A program made the translations under genes and the position numbers. From positions 4,135 to 68,134 of the IMG/VR virus record IMGVR_UViG_3300015050_000931: a stretch of DNA of 64,000 nt. One strand, given 5' to 3'. Position 1 is the stretch's first letter; each line of letters starts with the position of its first letter. The notes below the pieces were generated by a model. That model was not told where the DNA came from, searched no databases, and worked only from the letters and a program-made list of their open reading frames with translations. The stretch comes from a virus (Duplodnaviria > Caudoviricetes). Positions 371 to 51,296 of this stretch are shown here, piece after piece.

Positions 371-718
371 ATGCCTATAAATATGTCAGTTGAATTTCCA
401 AAATTGGAAACAGAAAACCAAAAGTTAAAACGCTTATTGCATGACCTTACACCGGGAGGAAGTGAATTTTATAATAACCCTGAATATTGTGCTAAATGGA
501 TAAGGGAAAACAGGCAACAGGAAGCAAAGATTTTAAAAGAAATGGTAAAAGCTGCCAAAGATAAAAACGAAGTATTACAGGCAGATAATGAAAGACTTTT
601 AAATAGCCATAAATCAGCAATGTTAACCGCTATGGAATTTGGATATAAAGAATGTGAGAAAGGGAATAACTTAGATATGGCTTTTATAAACTTCAACAAA
701 GCACTACAAAACAAGTAA
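371..718 (+). CDS. hypothetical phage protein (coiled-coil)
   Basis: 115-aa ORF, A-rich leader, coiled-coil-like C-half. Confidence 0.65.
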   Translation: MPINMSVEFPKLETENQKLKRLLHDLTPGGSEFYNNPEYCAKWIRENRQQEAKILKEMVKAAKDKNEVLQADNERLLNSHKSAMLTAMEFGYKECEKGNNLDMAFINFNKALQNK

Positions 719-757
719 ACACTTAACCACTAAAAATTCATATTAAAATAAATAAAG

Positions 758-949
758 ATGAAACAAACATTAAGACAAGTTATTGAAATGATGCTGGAAG
801 ATTTAGGATATCGTCAAAAGATGCTTAATGCCAACATAAAGCAATATGTAGATGCTGGTAATCTTATGGATGCAGCTATTAATAAAATAAAATTTGATAC
901 CCTTGAAACTGTAAGGGTAAGACTTGAAGATTCATTATATAACCATTAA
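758..949 (+). CDS. hypothetical phage protein
   Basis: 63-aa ORF in the same gene run. Confidence 0.6.
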   Translation: MKQTLRQVIEMMLEDLGYRQKMLNANIKQYVDAGNLMDAAINKIKFDTLETVRVRLEDSLYNH

Positions 950-960
950 AAAATAAAATC

Positions 961-1341
961 ATGTTACTAACCATTTTACTTTGGGTTATAGGCTGTATTG
1001 CCTTAGCCTTTTTAAATGCCAAATTTTGGAAGCTAATGCCCGATACAGAAAGTAATGAGGGCAATGATGTAAAAGCTAAAATAAAGCCCTTATATGAGCC
1101 TATAAACAAGGGTAAATTAAACTGGATGGACTGGATAACTATTGTTGTTGTATTGGCTGTGTTGTTTAGCTGCTCACCTATGAAGTCAGGATATTACACA
1201 ATTAAAGAAGTAAGGGCATTAAATACTGTGGTATTAAAAGAAGTAAAAGGGGATTGGCACATACCGTCCGATACCTTAAAAGTAGGGGATAAAGTGTACC
1301 TGAAAAGAAGTAAAACCGATTCGCTAATTAATGTATGGTAA
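961..1341 (+). CDS. hypothetical membrane protein
   Basis: Two hydrophobic stretches (MLLTILLWVIGCIALAFL; WITIVVVLAVLFSC). Confidence 0.55.
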   Translation: MLLTILLWVIGCIALAFLNAKFWKLMPDTESNEGNDVKAKIKPLYEPINKGKLNWMDWITIVVVLAVLFSCSPMKSGYYTIKEVRALNTVVLKEVKGDWHIPSDTLKVGDKVYLKRSKTDSLINVW

Positions 1342-1382
1342 AACATATTAACTATTTCAATTAACCATTAAACTTAAAACAA

Positions 1383-1574
1383 ATGTTTGCACTACTCGTA
1401 AATCCCGAAAATTCATTGCCTACTATTGTCAATGTTAATTCTGATGCTTACTTTGATATGACCTTTCAAGGGTATCAGCCAATAGCAACAGGATACCGTA
1501 AACAGTTAGAAACTATTGAAGAAGAAATGCTATCTGAAATGTACGGGGATTTAGAATTAAACCAAAGTAATTAA
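1383..1574 (+). CDS. hypothetical phage protein
   Basis: 63-aa ORF preceded by TTAACCATTAAACTTAAAAC leader. Confidence 0.6.
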   Translation: MFALLVNPENSLPTIVNVNSDAYFDMTFQGYQPIATGYRKQLETIEEEMLSEMYGDLELNQSN

Positions 1575-1594
1575 CCAACTAAAAACAAAATATT

Positions 1595-1965: not shown

Positions 1966-1983
1966 AAATGATTGTGTATATTC

Positions 1984-2118
1984 GCATAACGGTTGCAAGT
2001 TTATTTAGTTGCCGAATTTAAAAACAAAATATTATGATAACAGATAAAGATTATTACGAAGCAAAAAAGTTGATTGCAAAATACGAAAGTATGCAATTGA
2101 ATAAACTTGATGTTAGCG
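1984..2118 (-). repeat. attC-like recombination hairpin A (135 bp)
   Basis: GCATAAC(1984)...CAAGTTTATTTAGTTGC / GCAATTGAATAAACTTG...GTTAGCG(2118). On the minus strand it reads CGCTAAC-5nt-GTTTATTC, i.e. the R''-L'' layout. Confidence 0.8.
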
Positions 2119-2273
2119 GTATGTTGGCTATGAGATTTAATAAGTGGATTAGCGAAAACAATTGGAGTGCTAATATCAATGGTAAAGGTTGGTTCAAAGG
2201 TAATAGTAGATTTTTTACAGATGCAGAACTTTGGGGAATGTGGTTAAGTAGCGATGATGTTAATTACCACTAA
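2034..2273 (+). CDS. cassette gene (cassette 3), hypothetical
   Basis: 79-aa ORF; starts inside the attC-A loop; its stop TAA is the TAA of the TAAC core of attC-B. Confidence 0.7.
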   Translation: MITDKDYYEAKKLIAKYESMQLNKLDVSGMLAMRFNKWISENNWSANINGKGWFKGNSRFFTDAELWGMWLSSDDVNYH

Positions 2274-2398
2274 CGAACAGGGCTTTGCGAAGGGCTGATG
2301 GCTTTGCACTTCCGACCCAAACTACTACTGCTGCTTGGCTTTGCAATTGGCTCAAAATTTATTCCGCAGCCAGCCTTTTGCAAAACCGCTTGTTATGT
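2268..2398 (-). repeat. attC-like recombination hairpin B (131 bp)
   Basis: CACTAAC(2268)...GGCTTTGCGAAGGGCTG / CAGCCTTTTGCAAAACC...GTTATGT(2398). Minus strand reads ACATAAC-AAGCG-GTTTTGCA. Confidence 0.8.
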
Positions 2399-2497
2399 GT
2401 AGTTGTGGGTGCTAATTGATGTCGCTGCTATGAAAAACTAAAGTTCGGCTGTATTATTTTTTTTGAAGCTGCGGAGCATGTATTTAAAATTATTAGT

Positions 2498-2788
2498 ATG
2501 AAAAATAAAAAACAAGAAGTAAGAATTGAACAAGAACAATACTTAGAACTTCAAAGATGCTTTAGTGAATTATTAAAGCAATGTACCGGAGTTAAATTTA
2601 AAATAAACCCGGAAGCATGGTACGATAATCAAGAAATAATGCAGCTACTTTTTATTAGTAAAAGAACTGCACAGCATTACAGGGATAGTAAATTAATATC
2701 CTTCTCACAAGTGGGTAACAAAATTTACTATAAAGGTGAAAATATAATTGCATTATTGGAAGGAAATTTTATAAAGAATAAATTTTAA
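2498..2788 (+). CDS. MerR/excisionase-like helix-turn-helix protein (HTH_17-like)
   Basis: YDNQEIMQLLFISKRTAQHYRDSKLISFSQVGNKIYY is typical of Bacteroidota HTH_17 proteins. Confidence 0.75.
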   Translation: MKNKKQEVRIEQEQYLELQRCFSELLKQCTGVKFKINPEAWYDNQEIMQLLFISKRTAQHYRDSKLISFSQVGNKIYYKGENIIALLEGNFIKNKF

Positions 2789-2791
2789 TAC

Positions 2792-3058
2792 ATGAGAAGT
2801 TTACAGCAACTAAGAAACCTATTGCTTGATATTATTCCTGAAATAAGGAGTGGTAAAATAGAAGTAAACAAGGCTAATGCTATTTGTGCAGCGACTAACT
2901 CAATAATAAATTTAACTAAGTTGGAAGTTGATTATTTAGGTTCGCAAGATGATGCGTTCAAGTCTGATTTTATTATTGAGCCTGTTGAGCAAATAGTAAA
3001 GGAGCTGGAAAACAAGCAGAAAGTTCCTTATGAGTTTAATAAAAACTTTAAAGACTAA
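2792..3058 (+). CDS. hypothetical phage protein
   Basis: 88-aa ORF, closely spaced to both neighbours. Confidence 0.65.
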   Translation: MRSLQQLRNLLLDIIPEIRSGKIEVNKANAICAATNSIINLTKLEVDYLGSQDDAFKSDFIIEPVEQIVKELENKQKVPYEFNKNFKD

Positions 3059-3852
3059 TGATTACCTGCAAAGCCTGTAATATAGAAAAAGATACCTCTA
3101 ATTTTTATATAAAAGATAAAAAAACTGGTAGGCTTTCTGGGAAGTGCAAGACTTGTGAAGCGCAAGAAAAAGGCATTAAGGATATTGGAAAACTTTCAGT
3201 ATCAAAAGAGCATCTGAATAACGGGAAAAGAAAGTGCTGCGACTGTAAAATAGTAAAACCAATTACAGAGTTTGTTAAAAACAAAAGTGTGAAAAGTGGG
3301 CATTCAAGCGTTTGTTATGACTGCTCAAAAGAAAGGGTTTATAAATATAGAAGAAACAGCAATAAAGAACTTGGTAGCCATTATTTAAAAAGGTTTGCAA
3401 TATCTAATTACGGTGTAAGGCATGAAGATGTAACTGACGAACTTTTAGAAATTGCAAAGCTGCACATACAAGCTAAAAGAAGCCTGAAACTGAATTTAGA
3501 TGGATTGGAATTTTCAACAATGCAGCAGTTTGCCGCCTATGTAAATAAAAAGTATGGTATTAGTGAACATTGTGTAAAAAAGAGACTTGATACGGGGCAT
3601 ACTGAAAGCGATTGTACTATTCCTGAATTTGACTTTAGAAGTCAATTTAGTTGCAAGTCCAGAGGTAAAGTATTAGTGACTGATATTAATACTGGTGAGA
3701 AAAGAATATTTACATCCCCTAAAAGGGTGATGGACGAAATGAATATAAGTAATGATGTTTTGGGCAGGTGCTTATCCACCGGGGAGATTAGAAAACCTTA
3801 CAATAATTCTAAGAATAAACAAACTTTAAAAATAGAATATTATGCAAACTGA
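3058..3852 (+). CDS. multi-zinc-finger protein with C-terminal NUMOD1-like DNA-binding domain
   Basis: CxxC pairs (CKAC, CKTC, CCDC, CYDC); C-terminal VLVTDINTGEKRIFTS..MDEMNIS resembles NUMOD1/HTH; no clear HNH catalytic motif seen. Confidence 0.55.
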   Translation: MITCKACNIEKDTSNFYIKDKKTGRLSGKCKTCEAQEKGIKDIGKLSVSKEHLNNGKRKCCDCKIVKPITEFVKNKSVKSGHSSVCYDCSKERVYKYRRNSNKELGSHYLKRFAISNYGVRHEDVTDELLEIAKLHIQAKRSLKLNLDGLEFSTMQQFAAYVNKKYGISEHCVKKRLDTGHTESDCTIPEFDFRSQFSCKSRGKVLVTDINTGEKRIFTSPKRVMDEMNISNDVLGRCLSTGEIRKPYNNSKNKQTLKIEYYAN

Positions 3853-4048
3853 AAAGAAAGAATTATCTACCGACCTTAAACTGGTTCGTACTGAATTAAA
3901 GGGTATATTATCAGATGTGAAAGACAGAAAAACTTCACTAAAAAGAGCAAACATTATAATCTATGCCTGCTCCAATATCACCCGTACCATTGTAACGGAA
4001 ATTTATCTTAATCAGATACCGGCTGATGATGAAATTAAAAACAAATGA
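3842..4048 (+). CDS. hypothetical protein, probable paralog of 2792..3058
   Basis: ILSDVKDRKTSLKRANIIIYACSNI resembles IIPEIRSGKIEVNKANAICAATNSI. Confidence 0.55.
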   Translation: MQTEKKELSTDLKLVRTELKGILSDVKDRKTSLKRANIIIYACSNITRTIVTEIYLNQIPADDEIKNK

Positions 4049-4133
4049 TGCTACGAAGCGTAATGTGTGGCTTGGGCAAAAAAAATAATACAGTTATCCG
4101 TCTGCCGCCAAATGGTATGCTGGTAACAATTAC

Positions 4134-4265
4134 ACATAACGGTAGGGCTTGCTGTTCGTTTGGGAATTTGAAAAACAAATGTTTAATAACTTAATAAAGT
4201 TGATATGAATACAAAAGATAAGGCTATGACTGTCAGCCCAAATGACAGCAAACCGATTGTTAGCA
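4134..4265 (-). repeat. attC-like recombination hairpin C (132 bp)
   Basis: ACATAAC(4134)...GCTTGCTGTTCGTTTGGG / CCCAAATGACAGCAAAC...GTTAGCA(4265), with one bulged base. Minus strand reads TGCTAAC-AATCG-GTTTGCTG. Confidence 0.8.
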
Positions 4266-4585
4266 GCAGTACGGTTGTTTCGTGTCCAAACTTTCCATAT
4301 TTCGGGGCTTCTTATCCTGATGCTGGATGTATAGATGGTCAATTATGGGATTTAGATAAATGCAATGATAACGGGCTTTATTCAAGTGGTGATAATCCGC
4401 CTTGCCCGTTCTGCAATACAGAAGCATTTATTGATTACCATACTGAAATTGACGACAAAGAATTGGAAGATATGAATAAAGATGATAGTTTGTCGTCAGA
4501 AGATAGAACGGAAATCCTAAAGTCAAATATGACGAAAGAAGATGCCACAAAGTTAGTCGAAGCCCTGAAATTAAAGTACAGTTAG
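4205..4585 (+). CDS. cassette gene (cassette 1), Cys-rich phage protein
   Basis: 126-aa ORF starting inside the attC-C loop; motif FGASYPDAGCIDGQLWDLD...CPFCN. Confidence 0.75.
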   Translation: MNTKDKAMTVSPNDSKPIVSSSTVVSCPNFPYFGASYPDAGCIDGQLWDLDKCNDNGLYSSGDNPPCPFCNTEAFIDYHTEIDDKELEDMNKDDSLSSEDRTEILKSNMTKEDATKLVEALKLKYS

Positions 4586-4591
4586 TATTGC

Positions 4592-4611
4592 TGCTAACAT
4601 TATGATTAGCG
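4592..4611 (-). other. attI-like simple core site
   Basis: TGCTAAC-attatg-ATTAGCG: two inverted binding boxes with a 6-bp spacer and no hairpin arm, 37 bp before the recombinase start. Confidence 0.6.
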
Positions 4612-4648
4612 AAGTTGATATGATAATCAATATCTTAAATATAAATTT

Positions 4649-5545
4649 ATGACACGATTTGAAGAACTGATAAATAAATTTAAAAGAGAATTACAGCTAA
4701 GAAAATATGCGGATAGTAGTATAAAAACTTATTCAGATTGCTTATGCGTTTTTCTTCGTGCCATGAATGGTAAGCCAAAACCATTACCCATTGAATGTGT
4801 GAAAGATTTTTTACTAACTATTAAAAATACAAATTACCACAAACAATTTACTGCAACTATCCATCATTTTTATAGCTTGGTTTTAAATACGCCTTTATCA
4901 TTAAAAGATATACCATATCCACGTAAGACCGATTATATGCCTGAAATATTTTCAATACAGGAGATTTACAGATTAATAAGTAGCTACGAAAATATTAAAC
5001 ATAGGTGTATTATGCAGTTATTTTATTCCTGTGCTTTAAGGATTGGAGAATTGCCAGTTATTGAATTATCACATATCAATTTTGATAGAAGTATTTTGCG
5101 TGTTAAAAATGCCAAAGGGTTTAAAGATAGAGATGTACCTATACCTGCCGATACCTTGATTTTAATAACATCATACATTGATAAATATAAGCCTATTAAA
5201 TGGCTGTTTGAAGGGCAGTATAAAGAACAGTATTCAGTTCGTTCAATACAACAAATATTTTGGCAAGGAGTAAATCGTATTGGCATTAAAAGGGCTGTCC
5301 GACCACACTCATTAAGGCATAGCAGAGCCGTTCATCTTAAAGAAACAAATGTAGATATAAAAGACATTTCTGATTTTCTTGGGCATTACCATATATCCAC
5401 TACTGCTGACTTTTATTTGAAGTTATCTAAATTTTCTTTGGGCAATAGAATTGCTAATGCAGATACTATTTTAAGCAAATTATCTTTACCGAAAATCACA
5501 TTACCATATGAACAAACATTTAATTTGGTTGCAAACCAATCGTAG
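4649..5545 (+). CDS. tyrosine recombinase, integron-integrase/Xer-like
   Basis: SAM4-like N-terminus (LRKYADSSIKTY); catalytic motifs LRIGE, KGFKDR, HSLRH, LGH, STTADFY. Confidence 0.9.
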   Translation: MTRFEELINKFKRELQLRKYADSSIKTYSDCLCVFLRAMNGKPKPLPIECVKDFLLTIKNTNYHKQFTATIHHFYSLVLNTPLSLKDIPYPRKTDYMPEIFSIQEIYRLISSYENIKHRCIMQLFYSCALRIGELPVIELSHINFDRSILRVKNAKGFKDRDVPIPADTLILITSYIDKYKPIKWLFEGQYKEQYSVRSIQQIFWQGVNRIGIKRAVRPHSLRHSRAVHLKETNVDIKDISDFLGHYHISTTADFYLKLSKFSLGNRIANADTILSKLSLPKITLPYEQTFNLVANQS

Positions 5546-51066: not shown

Positions 51067-51186
51067 GGGGAGTTAGCTCAGTTGGTTAGAGCGATTGTAT
51101 GCGGTAAAGTCCTTTGATAGAGGAAACCTTAAAAAGCTATTAAGGTTCGGTTCAGTAGGTCGGTAGTTCAAGTCTACCACTCTCCA
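51067..51186 (+). tRNA. tRNA-like gene 1 with expanded anticodon domain
   Basis: Acceptor GGGGAGT/ACTCTCC; D arm GCTC-AGTTGGTTA-GAGC; T arm GGTAG-TTCAAGT-CTACC; ~55 nt in place of the 7-nt anticodon loop. Confidence 0.7.
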
Positions 51187-51188
51187 CA

Positions 51189-51296
51189 TGGGTAATAGAA
51201 TAACGGTAGTTCGGCATCCTGTACAGGTCTTTGGCTTTTCTTGGCTTATAAGATAACGGAGTAGATGCAGTGGTGGTTCAATTCCATCTTACCCTA
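51189..51296 (+). tRNA. tRNA-like gene 2 with expanded anticodon domain
   Basis: GGGTAA/TTACCC acceptor; D arm GAAT/GTTC; anticodon stem GCATC/GATGC enclosing 45 nt starting CTGTA; T arm GGTGG-TTCAATT-CCATC. Confidence 0.65.

Follow-up and report, generated by a model that had tools for sequence, protein, structure and literature searches.

Organization of the array region

The DNA analysed here (the window) is a stretch of 64,000 nucleotides from a virus of the Caudoviricetes (Duplodnaviria). It covers bases 4135–68134 of the IMG/VR record IMGVR_UViG_3300015050_000931, which is 68,134 bp long in total. Near its left end (1990–4648) lies what is very probably an integron-like array of three cassettes, each of them beginning with a hairpin that resembles an integron recombination site (attC) and cut between the TAA and the C of a TAAC box. 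In about half of the hairpin family the start codon of the following gene lies in the hairpin loop. The array is followed by the gene for a Xer-like tyrosine recombinase. The features are given below; ORF is open reading frame, and R1 is a covariance model of the hairpins.

1974–2127, + strand: hairpin A, a divergent, AT-rich family member (R1 68 bits, E 1e-15), with TAAC at 1987–1990, arms at 1996–2019 and 2086–2109, GTTA at 2112–2115, and ATG 2034 in the loop
1990–2273, + strand: cassette a, consisting of hairpin A and ORF 2034–2273 (79 amino acids, orphan), running from one putative TAAC cut (between TAA and C) to the next
2258–2407, + strand: hairpin B, with TAAC at 2271–2274, GTTA at 2392–2395 and a GC-rich loop (R1 101 bits)
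2274–4139, + strand: cassette b, a multi-gene unit that begins with hairpin B, with Pfam and PHROG matches
4124–4274, + strand: hairpin C (R1 117 bits, E 2e-27), with TAAC at 4137–4140, arms at 4146–4164 and 4237–4254, GTTA at 4259–4262, and the in-frame ATG 4205 and ATG 4226 in the loop
4140–4597, + strand: cassette c, consisting of hairpin C and ORF 4205–4585 (126 amino acids, Cys-rich, PHROG 20542)
4585–4648, + strand: putative terminal, attI-like site, made up of the end of cassette c, GTATTGCTGCTAAC (4585–4598), 5 nt, GATTAGCGAA, AATCAAT and the recombinase ATG
4649–5545, + strand: Xer-like tyrosine recombinase (298 amino acids, Pfam SAM_4 and Phage_integrase), co-directional with the cassette genes

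The three hairpins are about 150 nt each, lie within 2.3 kb (1974–4274), and contain imperfect palindromes of 117–125 nt. In element A the inverted repeat (I1) has 24-nt arms with 79% complementarity. The loop of hairpin B holds no ORF start and is 98% identical to the loop of an element in another phage (L026_e1). An earlier note on this DNA had placed ATG 2034 and ATG 4205 within the loops of A and C, and both are there in the sequence. It had also read the hairpin arm and core as part of the proteins, and the peptides MQLNKLDVSG (2091–2120) and PNDSKPIVSS (4238–4267) do correspond to the 3' arm plus the GTTA box, while ORF 2034–2273 stops, as described, on the TAA of the next TAAC (2271–2274). 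The loop motif that A and C were said to share, GAATTT(A/G)AAAAAC, is present in both copies (GAATTTAAAAACAAA at 2014 and GAATTTGAAAAACAAA at 4164); it is the mark of a sub-family only, occurring in 9 of 265 unique elements, and part of the likeness is the A-rich stretch that precedes gene starts all over this phage (e.g. 1580–1597).

A family of covarying hairpins

The significance of these hairpins comes from the family and not from single elements. A scan of the window for TAAC...GTTA pairs with complementary arms gives 8 matches, no excess over the ca. 9 in shuffled sequences, and the z-scores of single-sequence folding are weak, from -1 to -2.8, the latter being that of the + strand of hairpin C (-34.3 kcal/mol with RNA parameters). 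An alignment of 27 elements, however, displays a 17-bp stem in which 13 pairs have changed on both sides. Compensatory cells number 118; shuffles give 42.9 +/- 4.6, and sliding the partner gives 33–42. The covariance model scores about 20 bits on the reverse strand vs about 100 on the forward strand, and over the rest of the 68-kb genome it finds nothing significant besides A, B and C.

A larger sample was collected by an exact-pattern search of IMG/VR for one arm type, which gave 118 stretches, and by adding the earlier loci. With a profile taken from the covariance-model alignment (nhmmer), 361 elements are found in 131 loci, and never on both strands of one locus. Since this sample was seeded on one arm motif, percentages drawn from it are indicative only. 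The inner length of most elements is 110–129 nt (n = 316), and in the window it is 117–121 nt.

The attC sites of integrons are imperfect palindromes of 57–141 nt bounded by RYYYAAC and GTTRRRY boxes; they have inner boxes, a spacer that stays unpaired and a loop that varies, and their structure is more conserved than their sequence. The phage elements have the same make-up: outer boxes of the form YAAC...GTTR bound an imperfect palindrome of ca. 120 nt, which has an unpaired spacer, the covarying 17-bp inner stem and a variable loop. The YAAC/GTTR cores are present, and the 7-mers agree with RYYYAAC in part (ACATAAC, CACTAAC).

The direction of folding was considered with both sets of energy parameters. 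With those for DNA the + strand is the more stable one in 199 of 263 informative elements (p = 2.5e-20), whereas with those for RNA the strands are equal (p = 0.6). Strand asymmetry had been entertained as a sign of an RNA role, and was dropped because it is missing with the RNA parameters. The conserved G-T wobbles also weakly back folding of the + strand.

These data bear on one alternative, in which the hairpins are mainly mRNA elements, such as enhancers or regulators of translation, processing sites or stabilizers, and the genes are shuffled by homologous recombination at the hairpins, with no site-specific recombinase involved. Recombination of this kind, at promoter-early stem-loops (PeSLs), has been proposed for T4-like phages. 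The alternative can draw on the location of every element on the coding strand, on start codons at preferred positions in the loop, and on G-U pairs that are kept at fixed stem positions (26/27 and 21/27). The dependence of the stability bias on DNA parameters speaks against it, as do the cassette boundaries and the terminal site (see below), and taken together it is unlikely, but the hairpins may have an RNA role in addition. A promoter within the loop was also considered, and rejected on a motif scan of the 265 unique elements: the Bacteroidota -7 motif (TAnnTTTG) is seen in just 3, and the combination of TTTG, spacer and TAnnTTKG in none of them. By these motifs the hairpins do not have the internal promoter that characterizes PeSLs.

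The mobile unit and its boundaries

When hairpins with an identity of 90% or more are paired, the flank in common is the downstream one alone in 71 pairs and the upstream one alone in 2; both flanks are shared in 56 pairs and neither in 581 (see below). One unit shared between two arrays (L041 and L077) is identical from one TAAC, through the hairpin and its gene, to the next TAAC, a distance of ca. 805 nt, and the identity starts and stops exactly at these boxes. A relative of cassette c, with 89% protein identity, stands alone in an unrelated phage operon (L030); it has TAAC at both ends, a hairpin only in front, and the equivalent of ATG 4205 only. From this linkage of 71 to 2, the TAAC-to-TAAC bounds and the solitary cassette, the sequences argue that the mobile unit is a hairpin plus the gene behind it, cut in the 5' box between TAA and C. 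The order of boundary, hairpin and gene would then be the mirror image of the classical order of gene, attC and boundary.

The ends of the units point the same way. The box after a hairpin (GTTA and about 10 nt) matches, once reverse-complemented, the box that opens the next hairpin, and does not match its own partner. In the window, the end of cassette a (GTTAGCGGTA) agrees with the reverse complement of TACCACTAAC at 9/10 positions, the ends of cassette b (GTTATGTGTAGTTGT and ACAATTACACATAAC) at 14/15, and the remaining pair of cassette ends at 13/14. The rule holds in four further arrays (L016, L019, L022 and L023), with the first cassette of L023 as the sole exception, and is kept even where the core is the unusual GTAC/GTAC. 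Ends that match across the gene classically mark cassettes with a circular intermediate. For recombination between mRNA-type hairpins, such cassette-specific inverted ends, which pair across the gene and not across the hairpin, are difficult to accommodate, and so are breakpoints that fall exactly on the 4-nt TAAC core between unrelated flanks.

The genes follow the orientation of the hairpins, 187 of 202 inter-hairpin bodies being coded on the + strand of the hairpin. The claim of the earlier note that the cassette genes are antisense to the canonical integron orientation is borne out, since they point towards the recombinase gene; read on the other strand, the locus has the geometry of integrase, attI and array. 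The assignment of a hairpin to the gene that follows it, as in the same note, agrees with the 71 to 2 linkage.

The opposite assignment would keep the classical layout: a hairpin goes with the gene that precedes it, and reading through from a loop ATG is an accident of insertion that fuses the hairpin to the next gene. This is the build of all described integron cassettes, and it predicts junction fusions in which one head is found on many bodies, as is indeed the case here (see below); one contig, L032, has hairpins with genes mostly on the other strand. It is nevertheless very improbable, given the linkage to the downstream gene, the shared units that open at the TAAC before a hairpin and close at the next TAAC, the solitary cassette with a hairpin before its gene and none after, and the fact that head type tracks body clade in the family of the 126-residue protein.

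Contig L032 (L032:89–8988) is a 9-kb metagenome sequence with 11 long-loop members of the family (ca. 215 nt), all on one strand, and 7 inter-hairpin bodies coded on the opposite strand, that is, in classical integron orientation. Because of this contig, the hairpin family seems able to serve both layouts.

Two other kinds of mobile segment were rejected. Invertible segments of the shufflon type do not fit, as no opposite-strand frame runs across the segments and the shared units are direct and not inverted, and insertions similar to miniature inverted-repeat transposable elements do not fit either, as the outer ends vary between copies yet match across genes.

Probable translation starts within the hairpins

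The longest downstream ORF starts in the loop in 148 of 286 hairpins, with a peak at 41–50 nt before the GTTA. In 107 of the 286 cassettes the start lies past the hairpin. The loop-started bodies fall into 70 families, the largest being N6/N4 DNA methyltransferases, in which the conserved N-terminal motif begins directly behind the box. A search suggested beforehand, for unrelated proteins with common arm-encoded N-termini, was successful: the head M..SPNDAKP is found in frame on more than 20 unrelated bodies. Stop codons are also placed with respect to the hairpins, with peaks at -13 (49 cases), -1 (47) and -8 (17) relative to the next core, together 113 of about 200 bodies. The stop at -13 is a TAG overlapping GTATTGC, and that at -1 is the TAA of TAAC.

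Cassette c provides the clearest case in the window. Its codons 12–21 correspond to the 3' arm together with GTTA, and there is no in-frame ATG, GTG or TTG from the GTTA (4259) to the conserved core of the protein. This protein has 123 homologues, in which the core begins at CP(E/N)FPFFGA. The free-standing members of the family have their own Met 4–8 codons ahead of the core, whereas array-borne members have lost it and have long, variable N-termini that are translations of arm and box (..SKPIVSSS, ..CQTDVSGSAV); head type follows body clade within the family. As no in-frame start follows the GTTA and the array relatives read through the arm, the start of cassette c lies, on present evidence, in the hairpin loop, at ATG 4205 or ATG 4226.

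Cassette a likely starts at its loop ATG, 2034. Its product is an orphan, so that the start was judged by context scoring alone, with a matrix of start contexts derived from 43 long genes of the phage. ATG 2034 is at the 97th percentile, ATG 2091 at the 95th and ATG 2121 at the 3rd.

Several of these observations are less favourable to starts in the loop. The 79-residue protein of cassette a has no homologue among 1.84 billion representative proteins, and ATG 2091 and ATG 2121 are in-frame alternatives to ATG 2034. The start context of ATG 4205 is mediocre (47th percentile), with ATG 4226 at the 91st. They would suit the view that the loop ATGs are artefacts of annotation, chance extensions of genes whose true starts lie past the GTTA, so that the hairpins are untranslated. 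An open extension of 20 codons is not rare by chance, 67 of the 148 loop-started ORFs have an in-frame ATG within 90 nt past the GTTA, and the 107 cassettes mentioned above do start past the hairpin. This view is quite improbable, however. The other 81 of the 148 ORFs have no in-frame ATG within that distance and cassette c has no start codon of any of the three types between the GTTA and its core; the methyltransferase motif begins directly behind the box, the context of ATG 2121 is very poor, and the Met that free-standing homologues of the 126-residue protein keep before the core has disappeared from the array copies.

Cassette b is of a different kind, its first ORF beginning 106 nt past the GTTA box. 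The proposal of the earlier note that the recombination site supplies the translation start thus stands for cassette c, is likely for cassette a, does not apply to cassette b, and covers about half of the family. Its further proposal, of cassettes as self-contained expression units, fits translation only: the promoter motif is present in just 3/265 hairpins, and because of this the cassettes are probably read from upstream phage promoters. Folding of the hairpin may, as the same note suggested, also gate translation.

The ORFs of cassette b are all on the + strand.

2498–2788, + strand: HTH_17, excisionase-like
2792–3058, + strand: ORF
3058–3852, + strand: HNH/NUMOD endonuclease-like
3842–4048, + strand: ORF

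The termini of this cassette (the first ca. 95 nt and the last ca. 85 nt; 2392–2490 and 4045–4140) are 90–99% identical in the window and in three other phages (L020, L026 and L027), while the cargo between them (0.95–2.3 kb) is wholly different in the four phages. The ends also carry a perfect 17-nt inverted repeat (2449–2465 and 4077–4093).

The recombinase and the terminal site

The recombinase encoded at the end of the array has its best NCBIfam match to XerA (164 bits, under the cutoff). The model for the integron integrase IntI (TIGR02249) matches it in two pieces, with 105 bits against a cutoff of 265. Residues 167–200 face residues 171–247 of the chain of IntI4 (PDB 2a3v), ca. 43 residues being absent, so that by alignment the enzyme is without the IntI-specific insertion (the I2 helix region, between patch III and box II). 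In integrons this insertion binds extrahelical bases.

The recombinase has hundreds of homologues. Loci in IMG/VR were found by way of the recombinase alignment, a locus search with the single protein having given nothing, and in the 16 closest of the 18 recombinase loci hairpins of this family immediately precede the gene and share its strand. Where the gene is present, it is always downstream of the array and on the same strand. Its candidate role in the array follows from association and position only.

A half-site, consisting of YAAC, 5 nt and GATTAGCGAA or a clade variant, lies 40–55 nt ahead of the recombinase ATG. The motif is kept upstream of recombinase homologues in L007–L009, L013 and L014, takes the form GATAAGCGAA in L025, and has other variants in L011, L012 and L015–L024. 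All 16 of the close IMG/VR loci and two Chitinophagaceae assemblies have the half-site beside the tyrosine recombinase gene, a conservation that the mRNA-element alternative does not explain. Near-identical phages differ in what lies to the left of the half-site: two loci with an identical recombinase (L008 and L009) diverge exactly left of the TAAC.

Family hairpins also occur beside a different enzyme. In L031 (L031:1–1250), three to four of them are found downstream of a large serine recombinase gene, with no Xer-like neighbour.

Comparison with known systems

The array shares several properties with integrons besides the form of its sites. The hybrid boxes match across the cassette, there is one putative crossover box per site, and the array ends at a distinct site close to the start of a gene for a tyrosine recombinase of the Xer/IntI branch. 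It differs in that the hairpin leads the gene, and in that the genes are on the strand equal to the recombined 'bottom' strand and face the recombinase. About half of the cassettes have a coding site, the outer box is about 14 bp, and the recombinase is without the IntI insertion. Integron cassettes are promoterless and are read from the promoter Pc beside attI, an arrangement that is impossible here.

If the elements are taken to be attC sites, the locus, with three sites in 2.3 kb and a neighbouring recombinase that fails the IntI test, classifies as a cluster of attC sites lacking integron-integrases (CALIN). CALINs have been described in phage genomes, with methyltransferases as frequent cargo, and the examples include the Bacteroidota phage Polaribacter P12002L and some divergent sites (Qi et al. 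2023, PMC9892861). The part of that account dealing with virulent phages (section 3.4) makes no mention of a linked Xer-like recombinase, of hairpin-first cassettes or of starts within the site (PMC9892861).

Starts within a recombination site do have a precedent in class 1 integrons, where ORF-11 and ORF-18 of attI1 provide an in-site translation start that serves a start-less cassette gene behind it (PMC8876359). The attI1 site is fixed, acts mainly by translational coupling and serves the first cassette only (PMC8876359), while in the phage array every cassette would carry a start in its own mobile hairpin, read in frame into the protein.

Other systems resemble the array in single properties. 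In reverse integrons of the Treponema denticola type, integrase and cassette genes are also co-directional, but there it is the integrase that is inverted, upstream of cassettes of gene-then-attC build, while here the recombinase is downstream and the cassettes themselves are inverted. In CTX phage, the attP on which XerCD acts is a hairpin formed by a single folded DNA strand; it differs in being a single site for integration of the whole genome, with no cassette array and no coding role. The pdif modules of Acinetobacter plasmids are bounded by inverted, double-stranded dif-like sites of 28 bp, with two 11-bp arms and a 6-bp spacer. By eye, the phage boxes are not dif-like palindromes, and the covarying 17-bp stem suggests that the substrate is folded, a requirement that pdif sites do not have. 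A full-text search of the literature did not turn up cassettes led by a hairpin, attC loops with start codons, or a linked recombinase without the insertion.

A possible mechanism and its implications

In the mechanism we propose, the + strand would fold as single-stranded DNA and be cut by the adjacent Xer-like recombinase, and cassettes would be cut and joined in the 5' box of the hairpin, between TAA and C, the hairpin moving with the gene behind it. With the boundary directly before the hairpin, a start codon that moves with the gene must lie in the hairpin or after it. The loop ATGs would be starts in use, located in an A-rich loop 40–80 nt before the GTTA, and translation would run on through 3' arm, spacer and GTTA box to give a head of 15–30 residues. 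Transcription would come from upstream phage promoters. The central proposal, of a coding recombination hairpin that is cut by an insertion-less Xer-like recombinase and gives the following gene its start and its head, we consider somewhat probable.

A number of points weigh against it. That 581 pairs of near-identical hairpins have no flank in common implies that heads are also exchanged or conserved independently of bodies, and that a single crossover point is insufficient. A recombinase without the insertion that binds extrahelical bases is not what a role of the integron type would lead one to expect. The recombinase gene lies within just 4 of the 113 pieces derived from the pattern search, and the seeding of the sample on a single arm motif biases the proportions. 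Two of these points, the many near-identical hairpins with no common flank and the prevalence of arrays with no recombinase gene in the fetched piece, would also be expected if the hairpins were mainly mRNA elements.

In the usual picture, attC is a non-coding signal that trails promoterless genes, and the IntI-specific insertion goes together with the recombination of folded DNA in integrons. The hairpin family would alter this picture in three respects: its site stands ahead of the gene, on the coding strand, and is part of the reading frame in about half of the cassettes; the linked recombinase is without the insertion; and the platform is carried by phages, with a cargo of mostly DNA methyltransferases, a likely anti-restriction function. 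One site would move genes, give start-less genes a ready start and occasionally swap protein heads. If confirmed, the arrangement would widen the definition of integron-like gene capture, would offer a simple route to mobile genes that are free of local translation signals in bacteria where initiation is not driven by Shine-Dalgarno sequences, and would be a test case for the handling of hairpin substrates by a Xer-type enzyme. As a practical matter, gene callers and integron finders will misjudge the genes and sites of such arrays.

Genome context

The genome has perfect inverted terminal repeats of 123 bp (genome bases 1–123 and 68012–68134, the latter being the last 123 bases of the window). 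The first 5684 bases of the window contain small genes, all on the + strand and co-directional, of which the last is the recombinase gene; a convergent endolysin gene comes next. BLAST of the array region against deposited phages found no relatives, and searches for tRNAs (ARAGORN) and Rfam families gave none anywhere in the window, including 51067–51296. Recombinase homologues with 65–66% identity are found on contigs of Sediminibacterium and Ferruginibacter assemblies, and for this reason the host of the phage is probably a member of the Chitinophagaceae (Bacteroidota).

At eight other loci (L007, L009, L010, L017, L018, L021, L025 and L026), the contig begins inside a hairpin or no more than ca. 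160 nt ahead of the recombinase gene. Such breaks at the arrays may be due to population variation, repeats or genome ends.

Upstream of and within the array, the motif TTAACCAnTAAA is repeated at or just past the stop codons of five successive small genes (at ca. 721, 941, 1357, 1571 and 2262; window 718–1590 and 2260–2276), and the last of these copies, at ca. 2262, falls on the TAAC box of hairpin B.

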